NCBI GenBank assembly: GCA_964449245.1
Contig: CAYUXY010000001.1
Location: 66,838 to 130,837, forward strand
Direction of reading: 5' to 3'
DNA length: 64,000 bases
Source of the DNA: an uncultured Candidatus Saccharibacteria bacterium
GTDB taxonomy: Bacteria; Patescibacteriota; Minisyncoccia; UBA6257; GWB1-50-10
Each line of letters opens with the position of its first letter. Positions within the stretch are counted from its first letter, which is position 1. This document shows, piece after piece, positions 17,319 to 44,269 of this stretch. The translations under genes were made by a program, and so were the position numbers. The notes under the pieces were generated by a model, which ran no database searches, was not told the DNA's origin, and saw nothing but the letters and a program-made list of their open reading frames with translations.

Positions 17319-17579
17319 TTATAATTCAAGCTTTTTGACCAGCGCATTATATTTTTTCTCATCATTTTTCTCGAGATATTGGAGAAACCTTCTCCGTTTT
17401 CCAACCATCATGAGAAGTCCGCGTCTCGAGTGATGATCTTTCGGATTTTTCTTCAAATGACCGGCTAAAACCTTGATTTGTTTTGTCAGAAGGGCGATTT
17501 GCACCGATGCGGAGCCCGTATCGGTATCGTGTTTCTTAAAATCCTTTATCGCCGTCTGTTTTTTCTGTTTCGAAAGCAT
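17319..17579 (-). CDS. rpsO: 30S ribosomal protein S15
   Basis: 86 aa with the S15 motifs GSASVQIALLT and HSRRGLLMMVGKRRR. Confidence 0.9.
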   Translation of the reverse strand: MLSKQKKQTAIKDFKKHDTDTGSASVQIALLTKQIKVLAGHLKKNPKDHHSRRGLLMMVGKRRRFLQYLEKNDEKKYNALVKKLEL

Positions 17580-17599
17580 ATTTCGATAGTAATATATAT

Positions 17600-17876
17600 T
17601 TGGGTTTGTGTCAAAAAATACAGTTTTTAGTGGTTAGTTGTTAGTTTTTAGAGAAAATTTGTGGTGAGCGTAGTCGAACCATCTTTTAACTAACCTTATA
17701 AATAAACGACATTAAAACCCCGATGCTTTGATCGGGGCTCGCGACCCCCAAAGGAGCGTCGGAGTTAGATAATTAGAAATTATTTCTCCTATATTCTACA
17801 TACAATATTCTATATACTTCTGATCTAACAACTAATAACTAAAAACTAACAACTGCTCCTATGCTATAGTACATAT
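17600..17876. repeat. intergenic repeat element, copy 1 (GC-rich hairpin core 17714-17771 flanked by inverted TTAGTT-type short repeats)
   Basis: Core aaaaccccgatgctttgatcggggctcgcgacccccaaaggagcgtcggagttagata recurs at 25527-25584. Flanking arms cagtttttagtggttagttgttagttttt (17622-17650) and ctaacaactaataactaaaaactaacaactg (17825-17855) are inverted relative to each other. Confidence 0.7.
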
Positions 17877-18770
17877 ATGCCAAAGGATGCCACAAAATAC
17901 TTAGATCAATATCTTGACTATCTCGAGATAGAAAAAAATAAATCAAGGAAAACTCGCGAGAATTATGGTAGGTATCTTTCCTCTTTCCTTGAAAACAGGG
18001 ATATAAAAAACATTTCCGATATAAATACTGAAAATGTGCGTAAATTCAGGGTATGGCTTTCTGAAAAGAATCTTAAAAAAAATACGCAAGGGTATTATGT
18101 GATAGCCATCCGAAATTTCTTGAAATATCTAATAAAGCAGGGAGAAGAAGTCCTTTCTCCGGATATGATAGAGCTTCCAAAAGTTTCAAGACGCGACATA
18201 GAAACGCTCGACTATAAAGAGCTTGAGCGCCTTATGAGCGCGCCGGAAGGAAATGACGTAAAAACTCTTCGAGATAAAGCGATACTCGAAACTTTTTTTT
18301 CGACCGGACTTAGGCTTTCCGAGCTCTGCTCTCTTCCGCGATATATAGATTTAGAACGAGGGGAAGTTTCGGTAAGAGGCAAGGGAGACAAACTAAGAGT
18401 TGTTTTCCTTGCGGATAGTACCCGCAAATCGATTAAAGAATATCTTGCTAAGAGAACCGACCCAGAAGAAGCTCTTTTTGTAAGCGTCAGCAAATCCGGA
18501 AAAATTCTCGGGAAAATAACTCCGCGCTCCGTCGAAAGACTCGTGGATTTTTATGCGAGAAAAGCCGGAATTCCAAAAAAAATACATCCGCATCAGCTTC
18601 GCCACTCGTTTGCCACGGATCTTTTGATAAACGGCGCAGACCTGCGCTCAGTGCAGGAACTCTTAGGTCACGCAAATATATCAACAACTCAAATTTATAC
18701 GCACCTTACAAACAAAGAGCTTCGCGATGTGCACGAAGCCTTTCACGGACGCCGGAGAAAAAAAGAGTAG
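17877..18770 (+). CDS. xerD: tyrosine site-specific recombinase XerC/XerD family
   Basis: N-terminal SAM-like domain followed by catalytic motifs HQLRHSFATDLL and LLGHANISTTQIYTH. 297 aa. Confidence 0.85.
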   Translation: MPKDATKYLDQYLDYLEIEKNKSRKTRENYGRYLSSFLENRDIKNISDINTENVRKFRVWLSEKNLKKNTQGYYVIAIRNFLKYLIKQGEEVLSPDMIELPKVSRRDIETLDYKELERLMSAPEGNDVKTLRDKAILETFFSTGLRLSELCSLPRYIDLERGEVSVRGKGDKLRVVFLADSTRKSIKEYLAKRTDPEEALFVSVSKSGKILGKITPRSVERLVDFYARKAGIPKKIHPHQLRHSFATDLLINGADLRSVQELLGHANISTTQIYTHLTNKELRDVHEAFHGRRRKKE

Positions 18771-18772
18771 TG

Positions 18773-18856
18773 TGCTGGGGGGGAGACTTGAACTCCCAAG
18801 AGGTTGCCCTCACAAGGTCCTAAGCCTTGCGCGTCTGCCAATTTCGCCACCCCAGC
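18773..18856 (-). tRNA. tRNA-Leu (anticodon TAG), class II with long variable arm
   Basis: Hand-folded from the minus strand. Acceptor GCTGGGG/CCCCAGC, anticodon loop CTTAGGA and T-loop TTCAAGT. Confidence 0.8.
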
Positions 18857-18877
18857 AATAACCAAAATTCTACAAAT

Positions 18878-18908
18878 CAAAAACCCGCCTTTATAAAAGC
18901 GGGTTTTT
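18878..18908 (-). terminator. rho-independent terminator hairpin downstream of the pilin-like array
   Basis: 8-bp stem aaacccgc/gcgggttt with an A/T-rich loop and T-run on the minus strand. Confidence 0.5.
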
Positions 18909-18913
18909 GATTG

Positions 18914-19231
18914 TTATGCAAGTGCAAATTTTACTAACTCAATGATTGATTTCGCAAGTATTGCGACAGCAACCGCAATAACAGTTCCAAACAGTTGCTG
19001 TCTCGCAGTTTTCACCCTCGCTTCATCACCTCCGCTAAAAAGAAAATTATATGCGGAAAGGATGATAAATATAACTGCTAGAGCGAGAAGTATGCCGTAC
19101 ATCCAATTGCCTATTTTATCCATCAACTCCAATACCTTTGTTGGCGTGTTAATGGAGCTTTCTGCTTGGGCAATATAAGGTAAAATTAATAGTCCTATAA
19201 TTGTCCAAAAATTAGTGAAGACTTTTTTCAT
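18914..19231 (-). CDS. VirB2/TrbC-like pilin candidate (paralog 1)
   Basis: Signal peptide (..YIAQA|ES) followed by TM helix, short charged loop SGGDEARVKTARQQ and second TM helix. 105 aa. Confidence 0.55.
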   Translation of the reverse strand: MKKVFTNFWTIIGLLILPYIAQAESSINTPTKVLELMDKIGNWMYGILLALAVIFIILSAYNFLFSGGDEARVKTARQQLFGTVIAVAVAILAKSIIELVKFALA

Positions 19232-19240
19232 AGCCCAATT

Positions 19241-19594
19241 TTATCTAACTATGGAACTAATGACAATTACGATACCTTGCGCAAGAAGGCCAATTGCGAC
19301 TGCGACAATCGCGTATATCAAATAATTTTTTGCTTTTGTAACAGACTTCTCTTCCCCGCCTGATGTGAGGTAGTAGAACGCTGCCACAATTAAGAATATT
19401 ACGGCAAGAGCCAATAAAATTCCTAACATGTATTTTGCAATCAATTGAACTCTCGTCATTAATGAGCTGTAGTTTGTAATGTCAGACTCTAGGGTCGGTT
19501 CGGTGCCACTAAATGGATCGGTAATTTGCCCGATTGCAAATGCAGGAGCAAGAAGTATTGCTGCGAGTATTCCTGCTGTAATAATTTTTTTCAT
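19241..19594 (-). CDS. VirB2/TrbC-like pilin candidate (paralog 2)
   Basis: Same architecture. The motif MLGILLALAVIFLIV...TSGGEEKSVTKAKN is shared with paralog 1. Confidence 0.55.
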   Translation of the reverse strand: MKKIITAGILAAILLAPAFAIGQITDPFSGTEPTLESDITNYSSLMTRVQLIAKYMLGILLALAVIFLIVAAFYYLTSGGEEKSVTKAKNYLIYAIVAVAIGLLAQGIVIVISSIVR

Positions 19595-19643
19595 TTTTAA
19601 TAATTAATATAATACGACCTTTTCTTTTTGTGACGCATCGGAA

Positions 19644-19973
19644 TTATTCAAGAACTCCTTCAATAATGCCAACGATGCCCCATCCGATAAAAATTATACC
19701 ATAGCCCAAAGCGGCGTACAAAATGGTATTTTTGCCCGTCGTAAATTTTTTTGGGTCGCCTTGAGCGGTCATTATCTGAAATGCTCCGATTATAATCATT
19801 ATGGTTGCTATCGGCGCGCCGGCAGCTATGAGCCAGCTTATAATAGTCTGAATAAGCTCGAAAACATCGCCGGAGTTCAACGGATTTTGGAGTTCTATTG
19901 CTGCGCCTCTTGCGACAAACGGAACAGCCGTTAATGTGACACAAAGCGCCGTAACGCGTTTAAAAAATTTCAT
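19644..19973 (-). CDS. VirB2/TrbC-like pilin candidate (paralog 3)
   Basis: Signal peptide followed by TM, loop TAQGDPKKFTTGKN and second TM. 109 aa. Confidence 0.5.
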   Translation of the reverse strand: MKFFKRVTALCVTLTAVPFVARGAAIELQNPLNSGDVFELIQTIISWLIAAGAPIATIMIIIGAFQIMTAQGDPKKFTTGKNTILYAALGYGIIFIGWGIVGIIEGVLE

Positions 19974-20009
19974 ATAAATATTATACCAATTTTTACTTGA
20001 TAATGAATA

Positions 20010-20492
20010 TTATTCGCACTCTATCCTATTCCATATCCGCAAATCCCTCGTTTCGCCAGTTGTCGTACGGAAGCTCGAATTCGCGATAAGTTTAACGATC
20101 GTATTTATCATGAGCCATGATGCAAGTCCGATAGCGAGGCCGACCGCGGCGTTTGTCATAAAAGCGCGGGCGGTTTTCAGTCTCGATTCGGATCCGCCGG
20201 AAGTCATCATAATTATTGCCCCTATGATTATAAATATTACCGCAACTGGGATTGCGACTTGAAAAAGAATGGCAATCGCGTTTTGAACCACTATAAGCGC
20301 GTGGCAAAATGTGCAGGCTCCCGAAACGTTGCACGTAGACGTTGAAGAATAAAGCAGAGTTCCGCTTGTAAATGAGTTCGTCGTTTCCGTGCCTTCCCAG
20401 AGATTGAAAGAAAGCGCACTTGTCGTAAATGGCAATGCAAAAAATATAAAAGCTACGACAATCAAAGCCGTTTTCTTAAAAAATTTGTTCAT
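20010..20492 (-). CDS. VirB2/TrbC-like pilin candidate (paralog 4, with Cys-rich insert)
   Basis: Signal peptide, then Cys-rich segment CNVSGACTFC, TM, loop TSGGSESRLKTARA and second TM. 160 aa. Overlaps the SBP gene stop by 17 nt. Confidence 0.5.
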   Translation of the reverse strand: MNKFFKKTALIVVAFIFFALPFTTSALSFNLWEGTETTNSFTSGTLLYSSTSTCNVSGACTFCHALIVVQNAIAILFQVAIPVAVIFIIIGAIIMMTSGGSESRLKTARAFMTNAAVGLAIGLASWLMINTIVKLIANSSFRTTTGETRDLRIWNRIECE

Positions 20493-21804
20493 CGAATATT
20501 TTATTTATGTTGTCTTCGGCTTGTTTTATGGCAACGCGTATATCCGCGCCACGCAAGGTTATCGCGTCTATCATATCCGAAAATGATTTTGATATGGCTT
20601 CTCTGTCCGGTTGAGCCCATGATCTTGCGATTAACGCCTGACGCGCTTCAGCGCTGAAGTCGGGCGAGTTGCCGACCTTCCCGATTAATGAACGCAACGC
20701 GGGAGAATTACCCGTTTTTGTCATATACGATTCCGCGGTATTTTTTTGTGTCGTCATGGAAACGATTAAATTCCACGCAACCAATGGTAATTTGCTTTGT
20801 CTTGATACCGTATATCCGTAATAACGGGCATACGCCGCGCGACAGTCATATTCGTTCTGGCAAGTCGCTTCCGCCGGATATGGAATAGGAGCTATGCCGA
20901 CATTCAGCCATTGATTTTTGGCATGAATATTTTGAATCGTTTGTTTGTAATCGAAAATCATCGCAACTGAACCGTTGGCAAACGCATCGAGCGAGTTTGG
21001 CATAGAGCTATTCCACGTATAAGCGTCGTTTCGTGGGTTGGAAAATCCGGAATAAAAACGTACCGCCTCCTCGCCTTCAGAAGACGCAAAAGTCGCTTCG
21101 CTGTTTTTATCGTCCGTCATTTGAGTGCCGGATTGCATCATAAGGAGCTCAACTAAATTGCTCGCATTATTTATGTTGCTTCCCGATCCTCCGATTGCCG
21201 CTCCTGCGCGTATAAGCCTATCTGATGAATCGGTTTTTACGAGACGAGGAATAATTAATTTGAATTCTTCCCATGTTACCGGCACCTCCGCAATGCCCTC
21301 GGCATCAAATATGTCTTTGTTGTAGAGCATTACGAGAGTGTTTATAGAAAGGGGCAGGCCGAATATGTAACCGTCATTTACAAAATCTTTTTCAACGATG
21401 CGCGGGAAAAGATTTTGAATTTGCACAAGAGACAGGGTGTTTGTTGAAAGCGGATATATTTTATTTTTGTCCTTGATGACGCTCGCATTGTCTATCATAA
21501 AAATGTCCGGTCCTTGATTGGTCGCGAGCGCTTCCAAAAGAGCTTTTTTGTAAGTTGCTTCGTTCGTGAAACTTCGGAAATTAACTTTTACATTCGGATA
21601 TGATGCGCGGAAACTCGCAATTGCCGTGGCATAATCTTCTTCTGTATCGTATAAAACCCAAACGGACATATCCCCCTGAACGGCAGGAGCGCCGGTATTA
21701 TTTTTTTTGAGTCCGGGAATAACGCCTGTAAAAATTAAAACAATCAACAGAACGATTATCCCTATTATGGAGAAGACAATAGTTTTTGGATTGAGGCTGT
21801 TCAT
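20476..21804 (-). CDS. extracellular solute-binding protein (ABC transporter SBP family 1-like), N-terminally membrane-anchored
   Basis: N-terminal TM followed by a ~410-aa domain of size and layout typical of sugar-type SBPs. Confidence 0.6.
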   Translation of the reverse strand: MNSLNPKTIVFSIIGIIVLLIVLIFTGVIPGLKKNNTGAPAVQGDMSVWVLYDTEEDYATAIASFRASYPNVKVNFRSFTNEATYKKALLEALATNQGPDIFMIDNASVIKDKNKIYPLSTNTLSLVQIQNLFPRIVEKDFVNDGYIFGLPLSINTLVMLYNKDIFDAEGIAEVPVTWEEFKLIIPRLVKTDSSDRLIRAGAAIGGSGSNINNASNLVELLMMQSGTQMTDDKNSEATFASSEGEEAVRFYSGFSNPRNDAYTWNSSMPNSLDAFANGSVAMIFDYKQTIQNIHAKNQWLNVGIAPIPYPAEATCQNEYDCRAAYARYYGYTVSRQSKLPLVAWNLIVSMTTQKNTAESYMTKTGNSPALRSLIGKVGNSPDFSAEARQALIARSWAQPDREAISKSFSDMIDAITLRGADIRVAIKQAEDNINKIFDEQIF

Positions 21805-21822
21805 TATATATGTAGTGTACCA

Positions 21823-24294
21823 CTACAAGCACACAACTCCCATCAGCTTATCCCCGTCATCGAGATTCATAATTCGCACTCCCTGCGTCGCTCGCCCTGA
21901 AGTTCTGACGTCGCTTATTTTTGTGCGCAACGCCTGACCCTTTTTTGAGAAGGCAAGAATTTCTTCCGCATCAAGCACTACGTAGGTAGATATAACTACG
22001 CCAGTCTTATCGGTAATCTTTGCGGTCTTGATTCCAGAGCCTCCCCTTTTCTGTGTTTTGTATTCGGCAATGGGAGTTTGTTTTGCAAACCCCTTGTCCA
22101 TCACGGCGAGCAATCTCGTATCTTTCATAGCCGTACCTCCTTTTATTATATCAAGTCCGGCGACGGAATCTCCCTTTTTAAGCGCTATTCCCTTTACTCC
22201 GGCGGCGGACCTTCCCATAGGTCTTATGTCTTTTTCTTTAAACCTTATAGCCTGTCCGTTGGACGTGGAAAGGACTATCTCGTCATTGCCGGATGATATT
22301 TGCACCCAGCGAAGCAAATCGTTTTTGAGTTTTAACGCAATAATTCCGGTTCTTCGAACGTTTGCGAAATCCTTGAGGGCTGTTTTTTTGATGATGCCGT
22401 TCTTTGTTGCCATTACTAAATATTGTTTTATGTCCTCCGAGTCAGGGTACGCGATTATTGCGCTCACATTTTCATCTTGCGGAATTTCGAGATAGTTATG
22501 AATTAATTTTCCTTTTGATGTGCGCGAAGCCGCCGGAATTTCGTACACTTTTGTTTGAAACACTTTGCCTTTGTCGGTAAAGAACAAAATATTATCGTGC
22601 GTACTCGAGGAAATGATCTGGTCTATAAAATCCTCTTCTTTCAGGTCGAACCCTATTAACCCTTTTCCTCCGCGTCTTTGCGCGCGAAAATCGGTTGGCG
22701 GCAATCTCTTTATGTATCCGCCGAGAGTAAATGTGATAACCGCTTCTTCGTTAGGAATCAGATCTTCCTCTCTGAATTCTTTTAAGCTCGCCGCCACAAC
22801 TTTTGTGCGTCTTCCTTCCGGAAAATTCTTTTTTAATGTTTCGAGCTCGTCGTTTATGATATCAACCATTCTCTTTGGATTTTTGAGGATGAGTGTGAGC
22901 TCTTTTATTAATTTCCTTTTTTCTTCGAGCTCGTCTTCGAGTTTTTGTCTTTCGAGCGCGGCGAGGGTTTGAAGTTTCATTTCCAAAATAGCCTGCGCTT
23001 GTATGGGAGTAAGTTTGAAATTTTTAATGAGGTTTACGGCTGCGGCGTCCTTATCTTTTGATTTTTTGATTGTCGCGATAATTTTATCAATCACATCAAG
23101 CGCTTTGACGAGCCCTTCGAGTATGTGTGCACGCTCCTCGGCTTTTTTGAGATCGAATTCGGTGCGTCTGCGCACGATTGTTTTCCTGTGGGCTATATAT
23201 ATGAGAAGTATTTCTCGTAGCGAAAGTATTTGCGGTTGGATACCGTCGACCAACGCAAGCATGTTGAAATAAAAGTTTTTCTGAAGCTCCGTATACTGAT
23301 ACAGCTGATTTAAAATCTTTTGAGGGGATGCATCGTTTTTAAGTTCGACAACAATGCGCAAACCTTCCCTGTCTGATTCATCGCGCAAGTCTTTTATGCC
23401 CTCTATTCTTTTTTCTTGGACAAGCTCGGCGATTTTTTCAAGTAGGGTGGATTTGTTAACTTGATACGGAATCTCGGTGATGATGATATGAAAGCTCCCG
23501 CTTTTCTTTTCTTCTATTTGGGCCACAGCGCGCATAGTTACAGCACCCTTGCCCGTTGAATAAGCGTCCTCAACAGCTTTTTTGTCGTAAATGATTCCTC
23601 CTGTTGGAAAATCAGGACCCGGAATAAATTTCATCAAATCTTTTGTTCCGGCATCGGGGAATGAATTCAAATGGATTATCGCATCAGCGAGTTCGCATAA
23701 ATTGTGCGGAGGAATGTTTGTCGCCATTCCTACGGCTATACCTACTGTTCCGTTTAATAGGAGGTTCGGCAATTTTGCCGGCAGGAATTTTGGCTCCGTA
23801 CGCGAATTGTCATAGTTGGGATCCCAGTCAACGGTTTCTTTTTCTATGTCTATGATGAGCTCCTCGGAAATTTTAGAAAGTCTGGCTTCCGTATAACGCA
23901 TGGCGGCTGGCGCATCTCCGTCAATGGAGCCCCAGTTTCCTTGCCCTTGTACTAATGGATAACGGAGAGAAAAGTCTTGTGCCATGCGCGCAATGGAATC
24001 GTAAATCGCGGAATCTCCGTGAGGATGGTAGTGAGCCATAACTCCTCCGACAACGTTTGCGGACTTTCTAAATTTCGTAGTGTGCTTTAATCCCGCTTCC
24101 CACATACTCCAGAGGATTCGTCTTTGTACGGGTTTCAGTCCGTCTCTTGCATCGGGAAGCGCGCGCGCAACAATAACAGACATCGCATAATTTAAATACG
24201 AGTCTTTTAGCTCTTGCGTAATTTCTTGTGGTCTTATTTTTCCTCCTACTGGAGTTGGCTCTTCTTCAATTTTTTTATCAGTTTCTTTTTTCAT
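21823..24294 (-). CDS. gyrA: DNA gyrase subunit A
   Basis: Carries [26 protein letters not shown] and the active-site Tyr region. The C-terminal beta-pinwheel contains a GyrA box QRRGGKG, which argues for GyrA rather than ParC. Confidence 0.9.
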
Positions 24295-24309
24295 ATCGGT
24301 GGTCCTGTC

Positions 24310-24702
24310 TTATGGTAGCGGAGTCGGGGGTATGTTTTCAAGGCTTTGAGTCGAAAACTCAGGAGACTCGCCTTCTATATTAATGACATTTGGTTCCGTA
24401 ATTTGTTCTTTTATCACTCCTATATTTTGATCAATGCTTTTTTTCAGCACCTCGTATCGCTTGCCGAGGTCGTTCGAAAGATTGTCTATTCCACGTTTGA
24501 ACGTTTCACTAAATGAGTTTTCGTCTTTTTGTTTATTAGAGGAAAAAAATAGAGGTTCGGCGGTTATATTATTGATATAAATTATCCAAAGTCCGATTAC
24601 TAACGCCATTATGACTATCGTACTCCCTATAAACCATCTTCGCTTTGTACTCTCGTCCGACCTGCGAAGTTTATTTAAATATTGTTTAAATTGCAGACTC
24701 AT
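24310..24702 (-). CDS. hypothetical membrane protein
   Basis: 130 aa with a single TM (STIVIMALVIGLWIIYI). Confidence 0.45.
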   Translation of the reverse strand: MSLQFKQYLNKLRRSDESTKRRWFIGSTIVIMALVIGLWIIYINNITAEPLFFSSNKQKDENSFSETFKRGIDNLSNDLGKRYEVLKKSIDQNIGVIKEQITEPNVINIEGESPEFSTQSLENIPPTPLP

Positions 24703-24729
24703 ATTAGATTGTAACGCTAAACCAAAAAA

Positions 24730-25311
24730 TTATTTTTTTTCTTCGAGACACCTTATCTGCATGGCATTCTGAACAATATCCTTTTTCTTGAACACAAGTT
24801 TTTCTTCTTTGGCGCAGTCGGCATTGTTAAATTCTTTTAAGAATAGCGACAAATTTTTTGAAGAAGACGGAACTACCATCCCCGGTTCAATTTGCCGGAC
24901 GAGTCTCGCGATGTTTTCCGGCGAAACAAGAGGCTTTCCGCCAGCCGGAACTATTGCCACGTCAACTTCTTCGAAGTATTCAATGAAATCTTTGGAAAAT
25001 TCTTCCGGCAAATCTCCAAAAACGGCAAATTTAATTTCGTCAAAATCTATGAGATAAACTGTTTTTTCGACGCCATCAACGTTTCCTACGCTCCATCCGC
25101 GAATATGTATATCTTTTATTTCAAATTCTCCTTGATGGTCTATCCAAAAGCACTCGCTATCGTTTGAGGCCTTTTCTGTTGAGGATGGCCTCGATGTGTT
25201 TATTGCCGCAATCGCGCCTTTGAAAGAGCGCTGGTTTGTCGGGTCGATTAAGAGAGTCGCATCGCCAGATTGTAATTTAAAATAATTTTCGCCGTAAAAT
25301 GTAATTATCAT
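24730..25311 (-). CDS. hypothetical protein, MBL-fold-like hydrolase resemblance (degenerate)
   Basis: N-terminal sequence MIITFYGENYFKLQSGDATLLIDP resembles UPF0173-type MBL-fold proteins. No HxHxDH motif was seen. Confidence 0.35.
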   Translation of the reverse strand: MIITFYGENYFKLQSGDATLLIDPTNQRSFKGAIAAINTSRPSSTEKASNDSECFWIDHQGEFEIKDIHIRGWSVGNVDGVEKTVYLIDFDEIKFAVFGDLPEEFSKDFIEYFEEVDVAIVPAGGKPLVSPENIARLVRQIEPGMVVPSSSKNLSLFLKEFNNADCAKEEKLVFKKKDIVQNAMQIRCLEEKK

Positions 25312-25439
25312 ATATGTGTGAGTATATGCGATTTTCGCCTTTTTTTCAATTTATTAAGCGTTTTCAGAAGAATGCAATGTATGCCGGTTGTAGAGGAAGA
25401 TAACAGGGAAATGTGGAATACGGCACAGAAGAGTTTATT

Positions 25440-25700
25440 CGGGCATTTGATCGTTCAGTAATTTATTCGAAATTCCCGCCCGAACGACTGATTCGTTCAG
25501 TCGGGCAGGCGAAACAGGACGAGGTCAAAACCCCGATGCTTTGATCGGGGCTCGCGACCCCCAAAGGGGCGTCGGAGTTAGATAAATCGAAATTTGCGTT
25601 ACTTTCTACTTTTATCTTTCGTCTTTTAACTTATTCCCTACATACTATATACAATATTCTATATACCTTTTGCTTTTCGCTACTGTTAATGGTTGTTTTT
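25440..25700. repeat. intergenic repeat element, copy 2 (core 25527-25584)
   Basis: A 58-nt core near-identical to 17714-17771 (one mismatch). The 17-mer tacaatattctatatac recurs downstream, as in copy 1. Confidence 0.7.
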
Positions 25701-25718
25701 TTGTTAATTTACGCAGGG

Positions 25719-25747
25719 TTGACACAATCAGCCATTTTCCATATCTT
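25719..25747 (+). promoter_or_regulatory. candidate sigma70-type promoter for the S1 gene
   Basis: TTGACA at 25719-25724, 17-nt spacer and TATCTT at 25742-25747. Recognised by eye only. Confidence 0.3.
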
Positions 25748-25808
25748 TAGTATTGTCTTCTCTGCCGTCTCGGTTTTTATGAGACGGACCGAAAGTAGGC
25801 TTATATAT

Positions 25809-26906
25809 ATGGAAACAACTCAAATACAAAATAAAGAGGAAGAGCAAAATCTCGCATCGCTTATAAAAACAGAAATTAGCTCGCTCGCGCTTATGCGTGT
25901 TGGTGATTTAGTTGAAGGAACTGTGCTCGAAAAAGGAAGCAGGATGATAACGGTAGACTTGGGAGCTAATGGTACCGGAGTCATATATCGCACGGAGATA
26001 CAAAATGCTCGGGAAATTGTACGTGGATTATTGCCCGGCTCTAAGGTAAATGGAAAAATTATAGACGTAGATAATGACGAGGGGCTTATAGAGCTCTCGC
26101 TCTCTCACGCCGATAAGCAGAAATCGTGGGAAATTGTTCAGGAATTGAAGGAGCAGGAAGAGATTATAAAAATAAAGCCATCCGGATTTAATAAAGGCGG
26201 ATTGGTTGCCGATTTACACGGACTCTCGGCATTTTTGCCGATTTCTCAAGTTCTTCAGGGTTTTGAAGGGAAAGATGATGTAAACAACAAAGAAGAAATT
26301 CCGGGTATTCTTGAAAAGTTAGTTGGCGTGGAAATTGATGTGAGAATTATAGATGCAAATCCACGGACTACGAAATTAATAGTATCTGAAAGAGCGGCCA
26401 AAGCGGAAAGTATGAAAGAAATTGTTCAGAAATATTCCGTTGGGCAGACAATAGAGGGTGTTGTGTCCGGCATTGCCGATTTTGGAGTGTTCGTTAAATT
26501 TACCGACAATCCGGCAGTTGAGGGTTTAATACACATTTCCGAGCTCGGATATAAGGTAGTTGAAAATCCAAAGGATATCGTGAAATTAGACGATGTCATA
26601 AAAGTAAAGATTACCGAAATTAAAGATGGGAAAATTTCTCTTTCTCTTAAGGCGCTAAAGCCGGATCCATGGGCGCGTGTTAATGAAATATACAAAGAAG
26701 GTCAAGGCGTCAAAGGCACTGTTCATAGCTTTCATCCTTTCGGCGCGATTATAAATCTTGACGCCGATATTCAAGGGCAGGTTCACGTTGCCTCTTTCGG
26801 CGGAGTTGACGAGATGAAAAAGGCGCTGACTCAAGGAGAGGAATATTCGTTTGAAATAGAATCATTGAACGCAGACGAAAGAAAGATTCTTTTGAAATTA
26901 AAATAA
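25809..26906 (+). CDS. rpsA: S1 RNA-binding domain repeat protein (reduced ribosomal protein S1-like)
   Basis: Four S1-like domains (GDLVEGTV, GGLVADLHG, GQTIEGVV, GQGVKGTV). Start moved to METTQ at 25809 because the upstream part of the listed ORF overlaps the repeat element and promoter. Confidence 0.75.
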   Translation: METTQIQNKEEEQNLASLIKTEISSLALMRVGDLVEGTVLEKGSRMITVDLGANGTGVIYRTEIQNAREIVRGLLPGSKVNGKIIDVDNDEGLIELSLSHADKQKSWEIVQELKEQEEIIKIKPSGFNKGGLVADLHGLSAFLPISQVLQGFEGKDDVNNKEEIPGILEKLVGVEIDVRIIDANPRTTKLIVSERAAKAESMKEIVQKYSVGQTIEGVVSGIADFGVFVKFTDNPAVEGLIHISELGYKVVENPKDIVKLDDVIKVKITEIKDGKISLSLKALKPDPWARVNEIYKEGQGVKGTVHSFHPFGAIINLDADIQGQVHVASFGGVDEMKKALTQGEEYSFEIESLNADERKILLKLK

Positions 26907-26922
26907 TCTTGAATTACATACC

Positions 26923-26956
26923 AAAACGCCCGAATTTCTTCGGGCGTTTTGATTTT
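26923..26956. terminator. bidirectional rho-independent terminator
   Basis: Perfect 12-bp stem aaaacgcccgaa/ttcgggcgtttt with loop tttc. An A-run lies on one side and a T-run on the other. Confidence 0.65.
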
Positions 26957-26964
26957 ATTATTAG

Positions 26965-27057
26965 TTAATCGTCTTCTTTGTTGTTGCCGTAGACGCAGAA
27001 AGCTATGGCAACTAATACGACAACAATCACGATGATAATCACCACGAATGTTCCCAT
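26965..27057 (-). CDS. small hydrophobic peptide (30 aa, single TM, acidic C-terminus)
   Basis: Hand-translated as MGTFVVIIIVIVVVLVAIAFCVYGNNKEDD. An extended -10 TGTGATATAAT lies 6 nt upstream (27064-27074, minus). Sits between the terminator and repeat copy 3. Confidence 0.3.
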   Translation of the reverse strand: MGTFVVIIIVIVVVLVAIAFCVYGNNKEDD

Positions 27058-27063
27058 ATCTAT

Positions 27064-27074
27064 ATTATATCACA
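27064..27074 (-). promoter_or_regulatory. extended -10 element (TGnTATAAT) upstream of small peptide ORF
   Basis: Minus-strand tgtgatataat 6 nt upstream of the ATG. Would give a leaderless or near-leaderless transcript. Confidence 0.3.
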
Positions 27075-27084
27075 ATAAAGGCGG

Positions 27085-27270
27085 TATGGTAATGGTAGTT
27101 TTTAGTAGATAGTTGTTAGGGCAAAAAGTATATAGGAAAAATAATTTCTAATTATCTAATTTCGATTTAATGAATCAATGATTGAATGGATGAAGTATAA
27201 AGTCGAAAGACGAAAGTTTAAAGTAAAAATACAAGTATTTTTCTCTATTTCTTTATTCTTTCAGCTTTTT
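27085..27270. repeat. intergenic repeat element, copy 3 (inverted, AT-rich modules only)
   Basis: tagtttttagtagatagttgttag (27097-27120) matches the copy-1 left arm. aataatttctaattatctaa (27140-27159) is the reverse complement of 17766-17785. cgaaagacgaaagtttaaagt resembles the reverse complement of 25615-25640. Confidence 0.55.
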
Positions 27271-27281
27271 ACTTTTGTCTT

Positions 27282-27698
27282 TTATTTAATCGCTTCTTTA
27301 ATCTGTTTCAGATGATGCTCATAGTGTCCCTCGTGGCCATCTTTACTTTCATCGAATACCCACTCCATATCCGGTCGCGCCCGTAATATGTCCTCCCCTA
27401 TATTTTTTATTAACATTTCTAACTCATTTTGTAGCTTTTCCCATTCGGCGAGCAGTTGTTCTGGTGAATACTCGCTGTAAAAAAGAACGGCGCCGTCATT
27501 AAACTCCGTATAGTCGGCGTCTTTTTTCATAAACCACGGATTGTCCGTGCCGTTTTCTTTAAATTCCCGAAGTGTTTTTACGCTTTCCTTTTCCCAACCA
27601 ACCATATGAGCGACCACATCTTTCACCGTCCACTTTGATGTGGCTCGTACACCCCACATCTCCGGTTCAATTTTTCTCAAAAATTCAATAAAATCCAT
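27282..27698 (-). CDS. DinB/YfiT-like (DinB_2 superfamily) metal-dependent protein
   Basis: Carries WTVKDVVAHMVGWE and the C-terminal HEGHYEHHLKQI histidine cluster. Start set to MDFIEF at 27698 because the longer ORF would overlap tRNA-His. Confidence 0.55.
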   Translation of the reverse strand: MDFIEFLRKIEPEMWGVRATSKWTVKDVVAHMVGWEKESVKTLREFKENGTDNPWFMKKDADYTEFNDGAVLFYSEYSPEQLLAEWEKLQNELEMLIKNIGEDILRARPDMEWVFDESKDGHEGHYEHHLKQIKEAIK

Positions 27699-27767
27699 AA
27701 TTAAATTATACCAAAAAATACAAGAAGTGCTTTTGTATACACATCTCGTCCCTCGACGCGCTCGGGA

Positions 27768-27805
27768 CAAAACACAAAAAGCCCAAAAGGGCTCTTTGTG
27801 TTTTG
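27768..27805 (-). terminator. hairpin immediately 3' of tRNA-His
   Basis: Imperfect palindrome aaacacaaaaagccc-aaaa-gggctctttgtgttt with a stem of about 14 bp. Confidence 0.4.
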
Positions 27806-27877
27806 GGTGCCTAACGGGAGTCGGACCCGTATCAAGGGCTCCACAGGCCCTTGTGTTACCGTTACACCATAGGCACC
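27806..27877 (-). tRNA. tRNA-His (anticodon GTG) with encoded G-1
   Basis: Hand-folded from the minus strand. G-1 pairs with C73, acceptor GTGCCTA/TAGGCAC and anticodon loop CTGTGGA. The T-loop TCCGACT has C at position 55. Confidence 0.75.
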
Positions 27878-27920
27878 ATACTGTGCTAAAAACTACATTG
27901 AGAGGATACAATTATTTTTC

Positions 27921-28340
27921 TTATTCTTCAACTTTTGACACGCCATTATTTCTCCTCGATTGTTTTTTCTGATATCGCATTCGTTTATGGCGCAATCTTT
28001 CCTCATCCGACCCTCGGCTTGGCTCTGTCGGAATTCGAGGCGGATTTTTCTTTAATGCTTCCGCAATTAACTCGTTTATCTTTTGAATCGCATTTTCTTT
28101 GTTGTATATCTGATTACGTTCTTCTTCGTTTTCAACTACGAGTTCATCTTCTTGATTGATGCGATTCGCGAGTTTTTCTCGAATTAATTTTTTATCTTTT
28201 TCCGCATAGGGAAGAGATCCGATTTTAACCCACGCTTGGATTTTTGTTGATCGCCTATTTACGCGCTGTCCTCCGGGGCCGCCTGCGCGAGATGCCTTAA
28301 AGGTAATATATTCTTCCCCAATTTGTATTATTTTCGTCAC
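27921..28340 (-). CDS. arfB: peptidyl-tRNA hydrolase ArfB (alternative ribosome-rescue factor B, RF-1 domain)
   Basis: GGQ motif SRAGGPGGQRVNRRSTK and a basic C-terminal tail. Confidence 0.75.
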   Translation of the reverse strand: MTKIIQIGEEYITFKASRAGGPGGQRVNRRSTKIQAWVKIGSLPYAEKDKKLIREKLANRINQEDELVVENEEERNQIYNKENAIQKINELIAEALKKNPPRIPTEPSRGSDEERLRHKRMRYQKKQSRRNNGVSKVEE

Positions 28341-28370
28341 AATATATAAATTTTACGGTATAATAAGAAA

Positions 28371-29057
28371 ATGGACAATGAATTATTGCGAACAATAGGA
28401 AGCTGGATAATAGAACACCAAGCATGGACCGACGTTATACTTGCCGGAGGCATAATTTTACAAGGTAGCATTACGATTCTCGTAGCAGTTTATCTCGCCA
28501 TTAATGACAACATAGAATGGACGAGGTTTTTTGTGGTTACACTCGGGGCTCTTATTATAGAAGATTTTACCGTATATGCCGTTGGTAAAATGTTTCGCAT
28601 GGGACGGAGCGGATGGAAATTTCATAGAAAAAACAAATCCAATAAAAAAATACAAATGTACCTCTTCTATTTGAAGAAAAATATGGGTAAGCTCGCTATT
28701 GTTTCGCGTTTTATACCGTGGGCTACGATGACCGTCATGTTTTTAATCGGATGGTCAAAGACAAAGCTGAATACTTTTGCAAAAGTATACTTCCCATCCC
28801 TATTTATATGGTTTGGAAGTATGACAATCGTTGCGTATTTGCTTATGTCGGGTTTGCACTATTTGCATTCTACGCATGCGTTCCGGAATGCGGAAATAAG
28901 TATAGCCGTAGTTGTTGTAATTTTCTTATTCGGCGGGCAGATTATAAGGAAGCTCTTTGGAAAGTATGCGGCTTTTGATAAAAAGGCTACCGAAATTGGC
29001 GAAGTTGTAGAGGAGTTAAGCTTAGAAGATAAAAAAGACGCAGAGCAAAAAATATGA
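28371..29057 (+). CDS. integral membrane protein, DedA/TVP38-like
   Basis: Multiple TM helices. The SRFIPWATMTV segment resembles the DedA R(F/Y)IP..RT motif. Confidence 0.45.
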   Translation: MDNELLRTIGSWIIEHQAWTDVILAGGIILQGSITILVAVYLAINDNIEWTRFFVVTLGALIIEDFTVYAVGKMFRMGRSGWKFHRKNKSNKKIQMYLFYLKKNMGKLAIVSRFIPWATMTVMFLIGWSKTKLNTFAKVYFPSLFIWFGSMTIVAYLLMSGLHYLHSTHAFRNAEISIAVVVVIFLFGGQIIRKLFGKYAAFDKKATEIGEVVEELSLEDKKDAEQKI

Positions 29058-29112
29058 AGCCTTTGCATTCCGAGCTTTTTTTGGTAGGATAATTGCGTTA
29101 TTTATTTGACGC

Positions 29113-29184
29113 GCCTGGATAGCTCAGTGGTAGAGCGAAGGTCTGAAGAACCTTGCGTCGGGGGTCCAATTCCCTCTCCAGGCA
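29113..29184 (+). tRNA. tRNA-Phe (anticodon GAA)
   Basis: Hand-folded. Acceptor GCCTGGA/TCCAGGC, D-arm GCTC-AGTGGTA-GAGC, anticodon stem AAGGT/ACCTT with loop CTGAAGA, T-arm GGGGG-TCCAATT-CCCTC and discriminator A. No encoded CCA. Confidence 0.7.
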
Positions 29185-29582
29185 CACGAATGTGTGCATG
29201 AGAGCGAGCAAATCTACTTTGCTCGCGTAGGGAATTGGACGCCGGAGCATGTGTGAGTCAGTAGACGAGCACGCGAGGCGGTGACCAGTTCTATCTGCCG
29301 AAGGCAGACCCGAAAGTGAGCGTCGGCGAGCTTGAGAGGCGAGGGATATTCCCTCTCCAGGCACACGAATGTGTGCATGAGAGCGAGCAAATCTACTTTG
29401 CTCGCGTAGGGAATTGGACGCCGGAGCATGTGTGAGTCAGTAGACGAGCACGCGAGGCGGTGACCAGTTCTATCTGCCGAAGGCAGACCCGAAAGTGAGC
29501 GTCGGCGAGCTTGAGAGGCGAGGGATATTCCCTCTCCAGGCACACGAATGTGTGCATGAGAGCGCTTGTCTCGCCGAAGCTT
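29172..29582 (+). repeat. GC-rich tandem repeat: two identical 180-bp units (29172-29351, 29352-29531) plus a ~50-bp partial third, beginning inside the tRNA-Phe T-arm
   Basis: Exact duplication is visible in the sequence. Each unit ends gagggatatt|ccctctccaggcaca, the same 15 nt as the tRNA-Phe 3' end. Units carry multiple perfect hairpins (gcacac-gaat-gtgtgc, gcgagcaaa-tctac-tttgctcgc, tctgcc-gaa-ggcaga). Confidence 0.9.
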
Positions 29583-29630
29583 ATTGTTTTCAATAAGCGT
29601 AGGCGGAAGATGGATATTTGCTCGCGTGAA

Positions 29631-30200
29631 CTAATACGACGGATTTTTCTCTTCTACTTTGTTTATAAAGTTTGAATATCGAGCGAGAGCGAATAACGCT
29701 CCAGAAAGTCGATTCAAAAACTGAAGCATAGCGGAGGAAATTTCAAGCTCTTTAGCCGTTTCAACAGCGAGCCGTTCAACTCTTCTCGCGAATGAACGAG
29801 CTATGTCTATTCTCGAAGATATTTCAGAACCACCGGGTATTATAAATTTTTTGAGTGGCGGTAATATTTCATCTATTTTAAAAACCATTTTTTCAAGTTG
29901 TTCGGTGTGAGAATGCGTGATGGCATTTTTTATTTCTTGTTTGAACGCTATAGCCCCGAATTCTGCTTGAGCCACAAAAAGCATTTCTTGGATTTCTAAT
30001 AGCATTTCAGAAATACCGATTATGTTGCTCTCGTTAATCCTTTTGTCTCGCTCGGCTTCGCTACGGCACCACCCGAGAGTAGAATTCAACTCATCTATAG
30101 TTCCGAGGAGTCGTATAATTGGATGGTCTTTTGATATTTTTGTACTTCCGATTGTGCATTCTCCGTTGTCTCCATTTCCAGTGAAAAAAGGTGTATTCAT
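29631..30200 (-). CDS. PduO-type ATP:cob(I)alamin adenosyltransferase-like protein
   Basis: N-terminal motifs FFTGNGDNGECTIGS and IIRLLGTIDELNSTLGW match the TG-GD.G.T and R..A.G..DEL.S..G pattern. 189 aa. Confidence 0.7.
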   Translation of the reverse strand: MNTPFFTGNGDNGECTIGSTKISKDHPIIRLLGTIDELNSTLGWCRSEAERDKRINESNIIGISEMLLEIQEMLFVAQAEFGAIAFKQEIKNAITHSHTEQLEKMVFKIDEILPPLKKFIIPGGSEISSRIDIARSFARRVERLAVETAKELEISSAMLQFLNRLSGALFALARYSNFINKVEEKNPSY

Positions 30201-30237
30201 ACATTCATAATATCATTTTTTTGCTTTTAAAAAACAA

Positions 30238-30265
30238 GTCCCGCCCATTTTAAAATGGGCGGGAC
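30238..30265 (-). terminator. rho-independent terminator (perfect 28-nt palindrome)
   Basis: gtcccgcccatttt|aaaatgggcgggac followed by a T-run on the minus strand. Lies downstream of the 30290-30580 gene. Confidence 0.6.
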
Positions 30266-30289
30266 AACATGCAAAATTACGAAGTGTTA

Positions 30290-30580
30290 TTAAAGATTTT
30301 CTATATCTTTATCAAGGTTTTTGAACTCCTGTTCTAAATCGTTGATGTTTATGCTATCGATTTCTTCGTTTATGACTGGTGTAGTGTCTTCCAAGGAATC
30401 TGTGGGCACATCCCCAATTTCGTTAGTATCCGCGCTCTCCTCTTTGAATGGTGTTTTGGCATTTTGCCATACGGATACCGCGATGATTATCGCAAGAATA
30501 ATTATTGCTGAAATAATCCACGCAACACTCTTCTTTTGCTTTGATGGAGACGATGCGGTCATTTGTGATTGTTCGTCCAT
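30290..30580 (-). CDS. small membrane protein, hypothetical
   Basis: 96 aa with one TM (VAWIISAIIILAIIIAV) and an acidic C-terminus. Confidence 0.45.
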   Translation of the reverse strand: MDEQSQMTASSPSKQKKSVAWIISAIIILAIIIAVSVWQNAKTPFKEESADTNEIGDVPTDSLEDTTPVINEEIDSININDLEQEFKNLDKDIENL

Positions 30581-30617
30581 ATTTCTAAACCAAAATTTAT
30601 GTGTCGACTTTTTATAA

Positions 30618-31550
30618 TTAATACTCGTTTATGTTCGGAATAGTTGCGAGCTCATCCGCGATCTCTTTAATTGCCTGCTTGATTGTTTGGATAGATTCAC
30701 GTATTTTCTGGAGGTCGTCAACGAGCTGATTTTTTACAACCTGAATATTAGATTTCGCCGTATCTTCCGATTCGATTGTAATCCCATATGTTTTGCCGGT
30801 TTGTATACGAAGCGCTTCTCTGGCTGAAGAGATTAGGTCCGTGACCGTTTGGATTTTTGCTCTTATTTCGCTCGTATTTGCGCCTGTTATGGAAACTTTG
30901 TCGGCTCGAGTGGCAATGTTTGCGAGTATCACTTCCATTTTTTCAATCGCAGTCGCAAAATTGCTTGTAATGCGCTCGTTCAAGGAGTTCATATTTTCAT
31001 CTATTCTGGTTATTATCTGTTGTTTCTTTTCGTCTTTGATGTTTTGCAACTTTGTTTGAAGCTCTTCTCTTTTGCGTTCGCGAATTACGGCCGCCTCCTC
31101 TTTGGTGGCACTAATGGCACTCGCAAACTGCGCACGCTTTTCTTTGATTTCCATCGCAAACTCTTGTCGCATCGTTTGTAGGATAGCTTTATTATCATCT
31201 GTAACCGATGCTTCATTTTCATTAACATTTCCGTTCGACACCGAGTCGTCATTTGCGGACGATGTTCCGTCTTCGTTAAGTTTACCGGAATATGATGAGG
31301 AATCGCTTGTCATTTCCGATCCGTCCTCATTTTTAATGAAATTTTGTATTTTGCGTACGGTTGCACGCTGTTTTAAAAATTCATTACCTGTAGAAATCGC
31401 TTTATCTTCGGAAGGTGCAATGGAATAATTTTGCATCATAGCTTGTTCTTGCGCTCGCAAAATATCCATCTCACTCGGTTGCTCTTTGGCGGAAGAAATC
31501 GAAGTCAGCATAAAACAAAAAATTATAGTTAAGATTAATTTATTTTTCAT
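30618..31550 (-). CDS. secreted coiled-coil hypothetical protein
   Basis: Signal peptide (LTSISSA) followed by long heptad-like charged regions. Confidence 0.5.
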   Translation of the reverse strand: MKNKLILTIIFCFMLTSISSAKEQPSEMDILRAQEQAMMQNYSIAPSEDKAISTGNEFLKQRATVRKIQNFIKNEDGSEMTSDSSSYSGKLNEDGTSSANDDSVSNGNVNENEASVTDDNKAILQTMRQEFAMEIKEKRAQFASAISATKEEAAVIRERKREELQTKLQNIKDEKKQQIITRIDENMNSLNERITSNFATAIEKMEVILANIATRADKVSITGANTSEIRAKIQTVTDLISSAREALRIQTGKTYGITIESEDTAKSNIQVVKNQLVDDLQKIRESIQTIKQAIKEIADELATIPNINEY

Positions 31551-31676
31551 ATATGTTATATATTGGTATCGCGACCTTTTGCTTATATTATATCAGAAAC
31601 TGAACGAATTTTATTTTCAATCAAGTTTTTACATATTAAGTCCAATGGGATAATATGATATGTAATAAATATTTTT

Positions 31677-43951: not shown

Positions 43952-44159
43952 TGATTCCTCTTGCTGCTGGCATTGCGATTAATCGTTGAGAGTGAGTATA
44001 AGCCAGTTTAATCTCTATATTAAAACTGGCGATGCGTCTTTTAAAAGAGCTTAACTAAGAAAATCAGTTTTTATTGAAAAATCAAAAAAACCAGCTTCAA
44101 AATGTCACGGAAGCTGATAATGCGATGAAACCTACATTTTTCAAAAAATATGCAAAAAG

Positions 44160-44175
44160 TGTTTGTCGACAAACA
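44160..44175. promoter_or_regulatory. candidate operator palindrome TGTTTGTCGACAAACA (distal copy)
   Basis: Perfect 16-bp inverted repeat. Confidence 0.4.
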
Positions 44176-44253: not shown

Positions 44254-44269
44254 CTTTATAACAAAAAAA

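Follow-up and report, generated by a model that had tools for sequence, protein, structure and literature searches.

We consider a family of short intergenic repeats in a 64,000-nucleotide (nt) stretch of contig CAYUXY010000001.1, which we call the window; it is about 41% GC, and its XerD homologues point to Candidatus Jorgensenbacteria (Patescibacteria, or candidate phyla radiation, CPR). The repeats lie at three loci, all within 9.6 kb: locus 1 between the divergent genes of ribosomal protein S15 (rpsO) and a XerD-like recombinase (xerD), locus 2 between those of an MBL-fold protein and an S1-domain protein, and locus 3 next to a tiny hydrophobic open reading frame (ORF). The gene context of S15, XerD-like recombinase and S1-domain protein is as the initial annotation had stated it. 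The repeats are real and far above chance, and their units have no coding capacity. Two ORFs of at least 40 aa overlap them (17478-17630 and 25413-25544), both spurious-looking and without support.

Repeat modules at three loci

The modules, collected in Table 1, are a GC-rich core, two AT-rich modules and arrays of TTAG heptads that we call arms. The core together with the start of AT module 1 is repeated over 68 nt at 95.6% identity, 41 nt of it exact (17714-17781 versus 25527-25594, blastn-short), and a repeat search of the window gives 76 nt at 92% (17706-17781 versus 25519-25594). The core 37-mer CCCCGATGCTTTGATCGGGGCTCGCGACCCCCAAAGG occurs exactly twice, with none expected from 100 shuffles, so the near-identical core first reported for both intergenic regions (17600-17876 and 25440-25700) is borne out. 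AT module 2 (CCTAyATwCTAyATACAATATTCTATATAC) is common to loci 1 and 2 over 30 nt at 90% (17788-17817 and 25637-25666), including an exact 18-mer, ATACAATATTCTATATAC, that carries TACAAT on the plus strand and TAGAAT on the minus strand. Before this module, locus 2 has about 40 nt without a counterpart in locus 1, where MAFFT places a 36-column gap.

Locus 3 is a partial, inverted copy of locus 1 that contains AT module 1 and the right arm, without the core and without module 2. The segment 17759-17797 matches 27127-27165 at 90%, and 17818-17851 matches 27093-27126 at 79%, both inverted, while the AT module 1 21-mer TTAGATAATTAGAAATTATTT is exact at loci 1 and 3. The earlier description of this locus holds for the arm, the AT module, the missing core and the adjoining tiny ORF; the likeness of loci 2 and 3 in "cgaaagacgaaag", which was part of it, is not significant (20 nt at 90%, E=0.69, blastn-short). 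Locus 1 is the most complete copy (233 nt, 17622-17854) and the only one with both arms; locus 2 (about 190 nt, 25477-25666) has none, and locus 3 (about 73 nt, 27093-27165) has one. No other copy of any module is found by blastn-short in the remaining ~54 kb of the window.

Table 1. Repeat modules of the three loci and the genes and block around them (window positions; nt, nucleotides).
Feature	Position	Strand	Remarks
Left arm, heptad array AGTTTTT AGTGGTT AGTTGTT AGTTTTT AG	17622-17651	+	23-nt motif at 17622-17644
Segment between left arm and core	17652-17713	.	sole copy in window
GC-rich core, copy 1	17714-17764	+	P1 17718-17737; P2 17738-17764
AT module 1, TTAGATAATTAGAAATTATTTCTCCTATATTCT	17765-17797	+	common to locus 3 (inverted); first ~17 nt alone common to locus 2
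AT module 2, with 18-mer ATACAATATTCTATATAC	17788-17817	+	in locus 2, absent from locus 3
Right arm, heptad array	17825-17854	-	reverse complement of left arm (23 nt, 91%); 23-nt motif 17825-17847
Extra GC-rich hairpin, CCCGCCCGAACGACTGATTCGTTCAGTCGGGCAGG	25475-25509	.	locus 2 only, 5' of core
GC-rich core, copy 2	25527-25577	+	P1 25531-25550; P2 25551-25577
Partial AT module 1, TTAGATAAATCGAAATT, then ~40 nt unmatched in locus 1	25578-25636	+	
AT module 2, copy 2	25637-25666	+	overlapped by promoter-like TTAACT-18-TACAAT (25626-25655, plus strand)
Locus 3 arm	27093-27126	+	23-nt motif 27097-27119
Locus 3 copy of AT module 1	27127-27165	-	90% to 17759-17797; 21-mer exact
S15 (rpsO)	17319-17579	-	adjoins locus 1
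XerD-like recombinase (xerD)	17877-18770	+	adjoins locus 1
MBL-fold protein	24730-25311	-	adjoins locus 2
S1-domain protein	end at 26906	+	adjoins locus 2
Tiny hydrophobic ORF, 30 aa	26965-27057	-	adjoins locus 3
Block with tiny peptide ORF, DinB-like, tRNA-His, ArfB-like (RF-1 domain), DedA/VTT, tRNA-Phe and repeat, PduO-type cobalamin adenosyltransferase, two unknown ORFs	26930-31660		

The arms are built on a 23-nt motif, AGTTTTTAGTnnnTAGTTGTTAG, found three times with all 20 specified bases identical (17622 on the plus strand, 17847 on the minus strand and 27097 on the plus strand) where none is expected. Its period is 7 nt: the window contains four occurrences of the pattern TTAG...TTAG...TTAG, where shuffles average 0.02, and the units are TTAGTTT, TTAGTTG, TTAGTGG and TTAGTTA, or CTAAnAA in gene sense. 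With a TTAG every 7 nt, each of the three frames of one strand contains TAG and each of those of the other contains TAA; read towards the nearest gene, the motif is G-free. At locus 1 the two arms are 91% complementary over 23 nt (17622-17644 with 17825-17847), and being heptad arrays they also pair in a second register. With this motif in hand, the inverted TTAGTT/AACTAA clusters that had been seen to bracket copy 1 are sharper than described.

The arm motif also recurs in 11 IMG/VR contigs of 40-59% GC, from four or more unrelated phage backgrounds: a single myovirus-like phage accounts for seven, one is a Mu-like baseplate contig, one is a contig of 43% GC, and two are rich in other heptad arrays (CCCTAAC, GTGGTCA). 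Because the motif recurs in this way, we regard the arms as a local case of wider intergenic heptanucleotide arrays, which may arise and change by replication slippage. In two of the contigs (L020 and L023) the arrays are inverted, or foldback, pairs placed where a spacer separates co-directional tail genes, and the next ATG follows after 16-35 nt. The description of the arms as iteron-like does not survive, since the units are 7 nt and not 17-22 bp and the same arrays lie between phage tail genes; no rep or dnaA gene is found near the arms.

Some details of the phage contigs are recorded here for their own sake. The foldback pairs of the GC-rich contigs L020 (9537-9663) and L023 (6050-6213), between baseplate/tail genes, are followed by a 16-mer, GCGAGCAT(A/C)GCGAGCT, just 5' of the ATG, and in L023 a GC-rich segment of about 85 nt is enclosed by AGTTTTGAGT / ACTCAAAACT repeats in an architecture like that of locus 1. 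Two of the viral contigs with the arm motif, both of 40-42% GC, L018 (60-140, 2650-2700 and 4210-4260) and L027 (4260-4310 and 8960-9000), have many different heptad arrays (TTAGTTG, TTAGTGG, CCCTAAC and GTGGTCA), which we take to be reminiscent of cyanobacterial STRR repeats. Their sequences suggest that phages may carry such heptad arrays between hosts.

We turn to the core, which has a GC content of 58-63% against 41% for the window. Its first hairpin, P1, is CCCCGAT-GCTTTG-ATCGGGG, with 7 bp and a loop of 6 nt, so that the hairpin first given as ccccga-tgctttga-tcgggg is present with corrected dimensions, and a second hairpin, P2, abuts it: CTC-g-CGACCCCC aaa GGrG-c-GTCG-GAG, with 3+4+4 bp, two bulges and the loop AAA (CGAC-CCCC-AAA-GGrG). 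In copy 1 P2 has one C.A mismatch, and in copy 2 it is fully paired (G for A at 25568). The same bases can alternatively fold as one long hairpin with a GGGG/CCCC tip, and the core is a near-dyad whose covariance model weakly matches its own reverse complement (13.7-15.4 bits). On both strands it folds moderately better than shuffled sequences (z of -2.4 to -3.4, and -4.2 when the extra hairpin of locus 2 is included).

A small RNA (sRNA) gene family, one of the options of the initial annotation, is an explanation that we consider quite unlikely. The core would then be the body of an RNA of 85-120 nt, read either on the minus strand from the TAGAAT of module 2 to P1 and a UUUU end, or on the plus strand with alternating two-hairpin and long-hairpin folds. 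The better-than-shuffled folding is in keeping with it, and so are the TTTT that follows P1 on the minus strand of both window copies and the setting of a third core, in the metagenomic contig L012 described below, where a terminator-like hairpin and a TAGAAT box precede the core and its 3' GGAG lies 10 nt 5' of an ATG. Across the three core copies, six substitutions leave both alternative folds about 98% paired, and one of the changes is a compensatory double change in P1 from U-A to C-G. However, this is one compensatory pair among only three sequences, and the maintenance of the fold is equalled by 163-183 of 500 shuffles, which is not significant. The U-run is just 4 nt and is absent in L012, and at locus 1 there is no good -35 box on either strand. 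The core is missing at the same sites in close relatives, unlike the pattern of a housekeeping sRNA, its covariance model, run over ~300 kb of relatives and phage loci, adds no member, and the near-palindromic sequence equally fits a site that acts at the DNA level. The Rfam search that had been proposed matched no known RNA family: at gathering thresholds the whole window gives five tRNAs only, and permissive scans of loci 1 and 2 give chance-level matches only (E>=1, far under gathering scores).

Relatives, a third core and short-read contig ends

In the relatives that we compare, XerD is 80-81% identical, and two of their contigs, L004 and L007, are colinear with the window from about 11.6 to 26.9 kb. 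The rpsO-xerD spacer has 112 nt in L004, 200 nt in L007 and 297 nt in the window, and the MBL-S1 spacer has 114 nt in L004 versus about 470 nt in the window (25312-25778). The element is absent between rpsO and xerD in L004-L009 and between the MBL and S1 genes in L004, and no arm-motif or core match is found in these relatives. The repeat is absent from the orthologous sites, and its pieces are lineage-specific additions to spacers that are short in the relatives, placed between pre-existing promoters. The copies are recent, because they are near-identical to each other.

The pre-existing promoters can be followed in detail. That of rpsO is TTGACA-17-TACTAT (TTGACG...TACCAT and TTGACT...TACGAT in relatives), the extended -10 of xerD is TGcTATAGT, 6 nt 5' of the ATG (TGaTATAGT and TGgTACAAT in relatives), and that of the S1 gene, whose start is most likely 25779 and not 25689, is TTGACA-17-TATCTT, with TTGACA 54 nt 5' of ATG 25779 versus 51 nt in L004. 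All three are matched by position in relatives without the element, and all three lie outside it, each between the element and its gene. The proposal that the repeat provides a structured 5' leader of xerD and rpsA fails, because the repeat sits between promoters and not in transcribed leaders.

Does the repeat instead serve as a portable promoter or upstream-regulatory cassette, one that alters the expression of rpsO, xerD, the S1 gene and the small peptide gene? The AT modules and the heptad array would then be UP-element-like or factor-binding DNA, or an outward promoter with a G-free 5' leader. All three motif copies read CTAACAACTAnnnACTAAAAACT towards the nearest gene start; the left arm, for instance, reads CTAACAAC...AAAAACT towards rpsO. 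The motif ends 7 nt 5' of the -35 box of rpsO, 4 nt 5' of the -35-like box of the tiny peptide ORF, where the locus 3 arm directly precedes a promoter-like TTACCA-17-TGaTATAAT (27092-27064), and 17 nt 5' of the extended -10 of xerD; the distances to the three ATGs are 42, 39 and 29 nt. Module 2 has its conserved TACAAT, with a reasonable -35 at locus 2 (TTAACT-18-TACAAT), the phage contigs have the same motif 16-35 nt 5' of an ATG, and TAACTGA repeats, to which we return below, lie 5' of start codons, where binding of a post-transcriptional regulator has been proposed (PMC4679880). Nevertheless, relatives that have none of the modules express these genes from promoters at matching positions, so the modules are not required, and the shared orientation is automatic wherever inverted arms lie between divergent genes. 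There are only three motif copies in the window, promoter-like sites in the region number 25 versus 27.8 in shuffles, which is no excess, and the GC core has no role in such a cassette. We therefore take this explanation to be unlikely.

The next question is whether the core exists outside the window. A search of the JGI metagenomes with the pattern CCCCGAN8TCGGGGCTCGCGACC gives one true homologue, in contig L012 (Ga0194126_10097444), and two chance matches in GC-rich coding DNA. The contig is Jorgensen/Brennerbacteria-like, with a type IV secretion system (T4SS) coupling protein 90% identical to proteins of named metagenome-assembled genomes (MAGs). Its core is identical to that of the window at 45 of 50 positions, with all five differences from AT to GC; the contig is itself GC-rich, and outside the core it shares nothing with the window and has neither AT modules nor arms. 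The core directly follows a native upstream region and the first 30 nt of a zinc-ribbon gene (ATGcctgccgaaacccgttcttgccgaac), and after it come 10 nt and a diverged, AT-rich second 5' fragment of the same gene (MTKSQTKVCQNCHGSFVVEPD), also broken off. The gene is intact in L028-L031, which represent empty sites (MT(A/P/S)ET(R/K)(A/T)CRNC... in L028-L030 and MNAETRTCRNC... in L031). From this context and the empty sites it follows that the core lies at an insertion or rearrangement junction and that it moves separately from the AT modules and arms.

As an observation on this contig, the two gene fragments (the native, GC-rich MPAETRSCR... and the diverged one, 2205-2402 of L012) stand 60 nt apart around the core and are both truncated, and the contig ends 112 nt past the core. 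The arrangement could be a replacement of the gene's 5' end, an integration scar or a chimeric assembly. An integron attC site has been considered for the core and rejected: the window copies have GTTAGAT on the 3' side and TTAAAAC or TCAAAAC on the 5' side, which are not complementary, and L012 has GCCGAAC on the 5' side with no GTT on the 3' side. A dif-like reading of the element is rejected on sequence grounds as well.

Other scans for the modules are negative. Viral contigs contain neither the core pattern nor the core-centre 18-mer, AT module 1 and the extra hairpin are likewise without a match in them, and the module 2 18-mer has three viral matches that look like chance, because their flanks share nothing else with the window. 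A blastn search of locus 1 against plasmids and phages gives short AT-rich chance matches only, and a six-frame peptide query of the core against a set of 5.8 billion protein clusters gives nothing.

Further information comes from the ends of short-read contigs. Two runs yield Logan contigs that match the window at 100% identity (L036 barring a 1-nt indel) and end at particular places. Logan uses k=31, and in a k=31 graph a unique contig extends 30 nt into a repeat. Two known repeats obey the rule. The exact core repeat begins at 17714, and L014 stops at 17743 (17714+29); a tandem repeat at tRNA-Phe begins at 29169, and L036 stops at 29198 (29169+29). The contig L014 also crosses 17652-17713 unbroken, so that segment is single-copy in its sample. 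Three other ends are accounted for by no copy in the window. L001 and L002, from two samples, begin at 17825, which puts a repeat edge at the outer limit of the right arm, 17854; L015 and L016, again from two samples, end at 25506, which gives an edge at 25477, the start of the extra hairpin; and L036, from one sample, begins at 25637, which gives an edge at 25666, the end of the homology between loci 1 and 2. Alternatively, co-occurring strains without the insert would imply edges at 17824/5, 25506/7 and 25636/7 (17825 then marking an insertion that ends at 17824, and 25506 one that starts at 25507). On either reading, the contig ends point, if indirectly, to dispersed or polymorphic DNA with sharp module boundaries, and because the three are unexplained by window copies, we infer further copies, or empty alleles, outside the window.

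These ends bear on another explanation, a plain local segmental duplication without mobility or function, in which pieces of spacer were copied within 10 kb by errors of replication or repair, and L012 and the contig ends are strain variation. The three loci within 9.6 kb, the other ~54 kb without a copy, the patchiness of the pieces, and the lack of a transposase among the window ORFs and of a target-site duplication are what it would predict. However, it leaves the core in another lineage, with different flanks and at a gene-disrupting junction, without an account, as it does the recurrence of the arm motif in unrelated phage contigs and the three unexplained contig ends exactly on module boundaries, two of which (17825 and 25506) are reproduced in two samples. 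We find this explanation very doubtful. Were the copies confined to these loci and not conserved in relatives, a local duplication would be suggested; half of this holds, since the element is absent at these sites in relatives, but the core recurs in L012 and the contig ends imply more.

Neighbouring genes and other repeats

Locus 3 lies at a synteny breakpoint, the left edge of a block of 4.7 kb (26.93-31.66 kb) in whose place L004 has just ~0.4 kb between its S1 and FtsH genes. An integrase-bearing island has been considered for this block and rejected: it contains ordinary genes and two tRNAs, and no recombinase. Within it, tRNA-Phe (29113-29185) is followed by a perfect tandem repeat of 179 nt (29169-29347, 2.2 copies; whole region 29113-29564), each unit of which opens with the 17 nt that end the tRNA (ATTCCCTCTCCAGGCAC...). 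The repeat has a GC content of 56-57% versus 41% for the genome and matches no Rfam family, permissive scans of it and of one phage locus giving only tRNAs and chance matches, and the contig L036 breaks exactly 30 nt into it. It looks like a serial duplication of the att-site type or a tRNA-linked structured repeat.

The initial annotation had linked the core to this repeat by a common motif. An alignment does exist, with 18 columns and a gap, CCC(C/G)AAAG(-/T)GAGCGTCGG; its p is ~0.007 in mononucleotide shuffles, and its score is reached by none of 1037 other segments of the window. In L012 a similar string, CCAAAGCGGAGCGTG, is found 3' of the core. The match is marginal, however, and blastn-short does not report it at E<=1, so we treat the link as a lead and not as a finding.

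Several observations concern the neighbouring genes. The extended -10 lies exactly 6 nt 5' of the ATG at both xerD (TGcTATAGT) and the 30-aa hydrophobic ORF (TGaTATAAT; window 17862-17879 and 27057-27072), while the distance at xerD in relatives is 9-11 nt. Because the box is so close to the ATG, the sequence suggests that both mRNAs may be leaderless. The likely start codon of the S1 gene (25779) is inside a hairpin, GCCGTCTC...GAGACGGA (window 25760-25790), and in L004 a hairpin, CGCCCCTCGGGCG (18312-18331), is immediately 5' of the S1 ATG; these may be a conserved autoregulatory leader structure. Four small tandem genes adjoin xerD (18914-20492) in a cluster that is kept in every relative examined. 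Both scanned members have T4SS-pilin (PF18895) domains, and in relatives such domains are present in the orthologues of all four. At 44110-44260, in the spacer 5' of a UPF0102 (YraN-like) gene and nusA, a unit of about 70 nt occurs twice, 77-78 nt apart, each copy terminating in the palindrome AAAGTGTTTGTCGACAAACAyTTT; to judge from the letters, it looks like a duplicated operator or terminator.

A proposed mosaic repeat in a small genome

[quoted passage not shown] We favour selfish or mobile DNA over a conserved regulator or a known RNA gene because relatives lack the element at the same sites. The modules would be the GC-rich double hairpin, the two AT-rich modules and the TTAG-heptad array, which in the most complete copy forms inverted arms, and loci 2 and 3 would be differing partial assortments of the modules of locus 1. 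Spread probably took place through a trans-acting enzyme encoded elsewhere, or through illegitimate recombination or gene conversion between spacers, with the hairpins and arms as recognised or recombinogenic ends. The promoter-like, terminator-like and stop-codon content would be incidental to the host, and may now affect neighbouring genes.

Several results weigh against the mosaic repeat. No transposase, RAYT (the transposase of repetitive extragenic palindromes, REPs) or other mobilising enzyme is found among the ~45 window ORFs scanned, where the sole tyrosine recombinase is the syntenically conserved XerD. No target-site duplication is seen at 17622 / 17854, with no direct repeat of at least 2 nt at either candidate boundary (the flanks read ...aaaaaatac / element / gctcctatg...), and both arms are present at just one locus. 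No more than three loci are seen directly, with others inferred from contig ends that could alternatively be strain polymorphism, and the modules at all three are just 5' of promoters, which fits a regulatory role too. The core pattern has no true copy in 185,579 species genomes (one chance match, in a Pseudonocardia MAG), and as the metagenome scan gave just one homologue, the core family is rare or too diverged for an exact-pattern scan.

How does the element compare with known systems? Like MITE-type elements (Correia/NEMIS, RUP and the enterobacterial RU/ERIC), it is small (233 nt), non-coding, AT-rich and intergenic, has inverted termini of 23-30 nt at locus 1, is absent from the orthologous sites of relatives, occurs in near-identical copies, and contains promoter-like and hairpin sequences. 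It differs in having no target-site duplication, no parent insertion sequence or transposase among the window ORFs, and arms that are tandem heptads with an ambiguous pairing register, and in that two of the three copies miss one or both arms. The label of MITE-like mobile element is the best of the three options first offered, if it is used loosely and of a mosaic: both arms are at one locus only, a target-site duplication is missing, and the modules are variously combined.

BIMEs and REPs of enterobacteria and pseudomonads are mosaics of GC-rich imperfect palindromes and short motifs, mobilised by RAYT transposases. The element resembles them as extragenic DNA with GC-rich imperfect palindromes in an AT-rich genome, with motifs combined differently at each locus and two adjacent hairpins of which the second resembles the first inverted. 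In contrast to them, it has no RAYT in the window, an apparently low copy number, and a core of ~50 nt that is nearly invariant across two lineages, and it lies between divergent promoters, whereas REPs are usually found at gene 3' ends or between convergent genes.

For the heptad arrays, the nearest analogue is the TAACTGA heptamer direct repeat, which is intergenic in Beggiatoaceae, Cyanobacteria and Bacteroidetes, just 5' of start codons (MacGregor 2015, PMC4679880). Its distribution is patchy with no known vehicle, and binding of a translational (post-transcriptional) regulator has been proposed without test (PMC4679880); heptamers are the commonest class of long simple-sequence repeats in prokaryotes, possibly through polymerase slippage (Mrazek 2007, as cited in PMC4679880). 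The arrays of the window likewise are tandem, TAA-containing units of 7 nt (3-4 here, two to six per set there), are intergenic, are oriented towards a downstream start codon (in all three copies), and are patchily distributed among lineages, which suggests that they spread horizontally, with no obvious vehicle. Unlike TAACTGA, the window unit is CTAAnAA / TTAGTTn, occurs in inverted pairs and is linked to other repeat modules, and the arrays lie 29-42 nt from the ATG, 5' of predicted core promoters, where TAACTGA stands within a few nt of the start.

Heterocystous cyanobacteria have very small dispersed repeats inserted into hairpins or STRR heptamer arrays and present or absent between orthologous regions. 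These belong to another phylum and have other sequences; the likeness is one of kind. A limited literature search turned up no account of MITE-like or intergenic repeats from Patescibacteria and nothing specific on described CPR repeats or this TTAG heptad, and to our knowledge little has been published on dispersed repeats in this group. As far as these tools can tell, the sequences are undescribed; as a kind, both small mosaic intergenic repeats and arrays of heptamers are already known.

A bolder version of the mobile reading, which we regard as rather improbable, is that the core is a new self-standing mobile or recombinogenic element of Jorgensenbacteria-type CPR bacteria, or a structured RNA riding on such DNA, and that the TTAG arrays are a functional module carried across phyla by phages and not slippage debris. 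In that case the arrays, which put stop codons in all six frames, may insulate translation or transcription, or be a site for RNase III or for a binding factor, and the GC-rich double hairpin can land inside gene 5' ends, as in L012.

Genomes of CPR/Patescibacteria are small and streamlined. If the mosaic repeat has been recently active between the promoters of essential genes (rpsO, xerD and the S1 gene), streamlined CPR genomes would still tolerate and propagate selfish DNA, and the repeat would mark variation between strains and breaks in the assembly of CPR MAGs. If it is inert repeat DNA only, its value would be limited to annotation and assembly, and a higher interest would arise only if the core turns out to be a new RNA or a mobile hairpin in its own right, or if the heptad arrays have a function. 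The GC hairpin, near-invariant in two lineages of different base composition, offers a target for finding the enzyme that may move this DNA.

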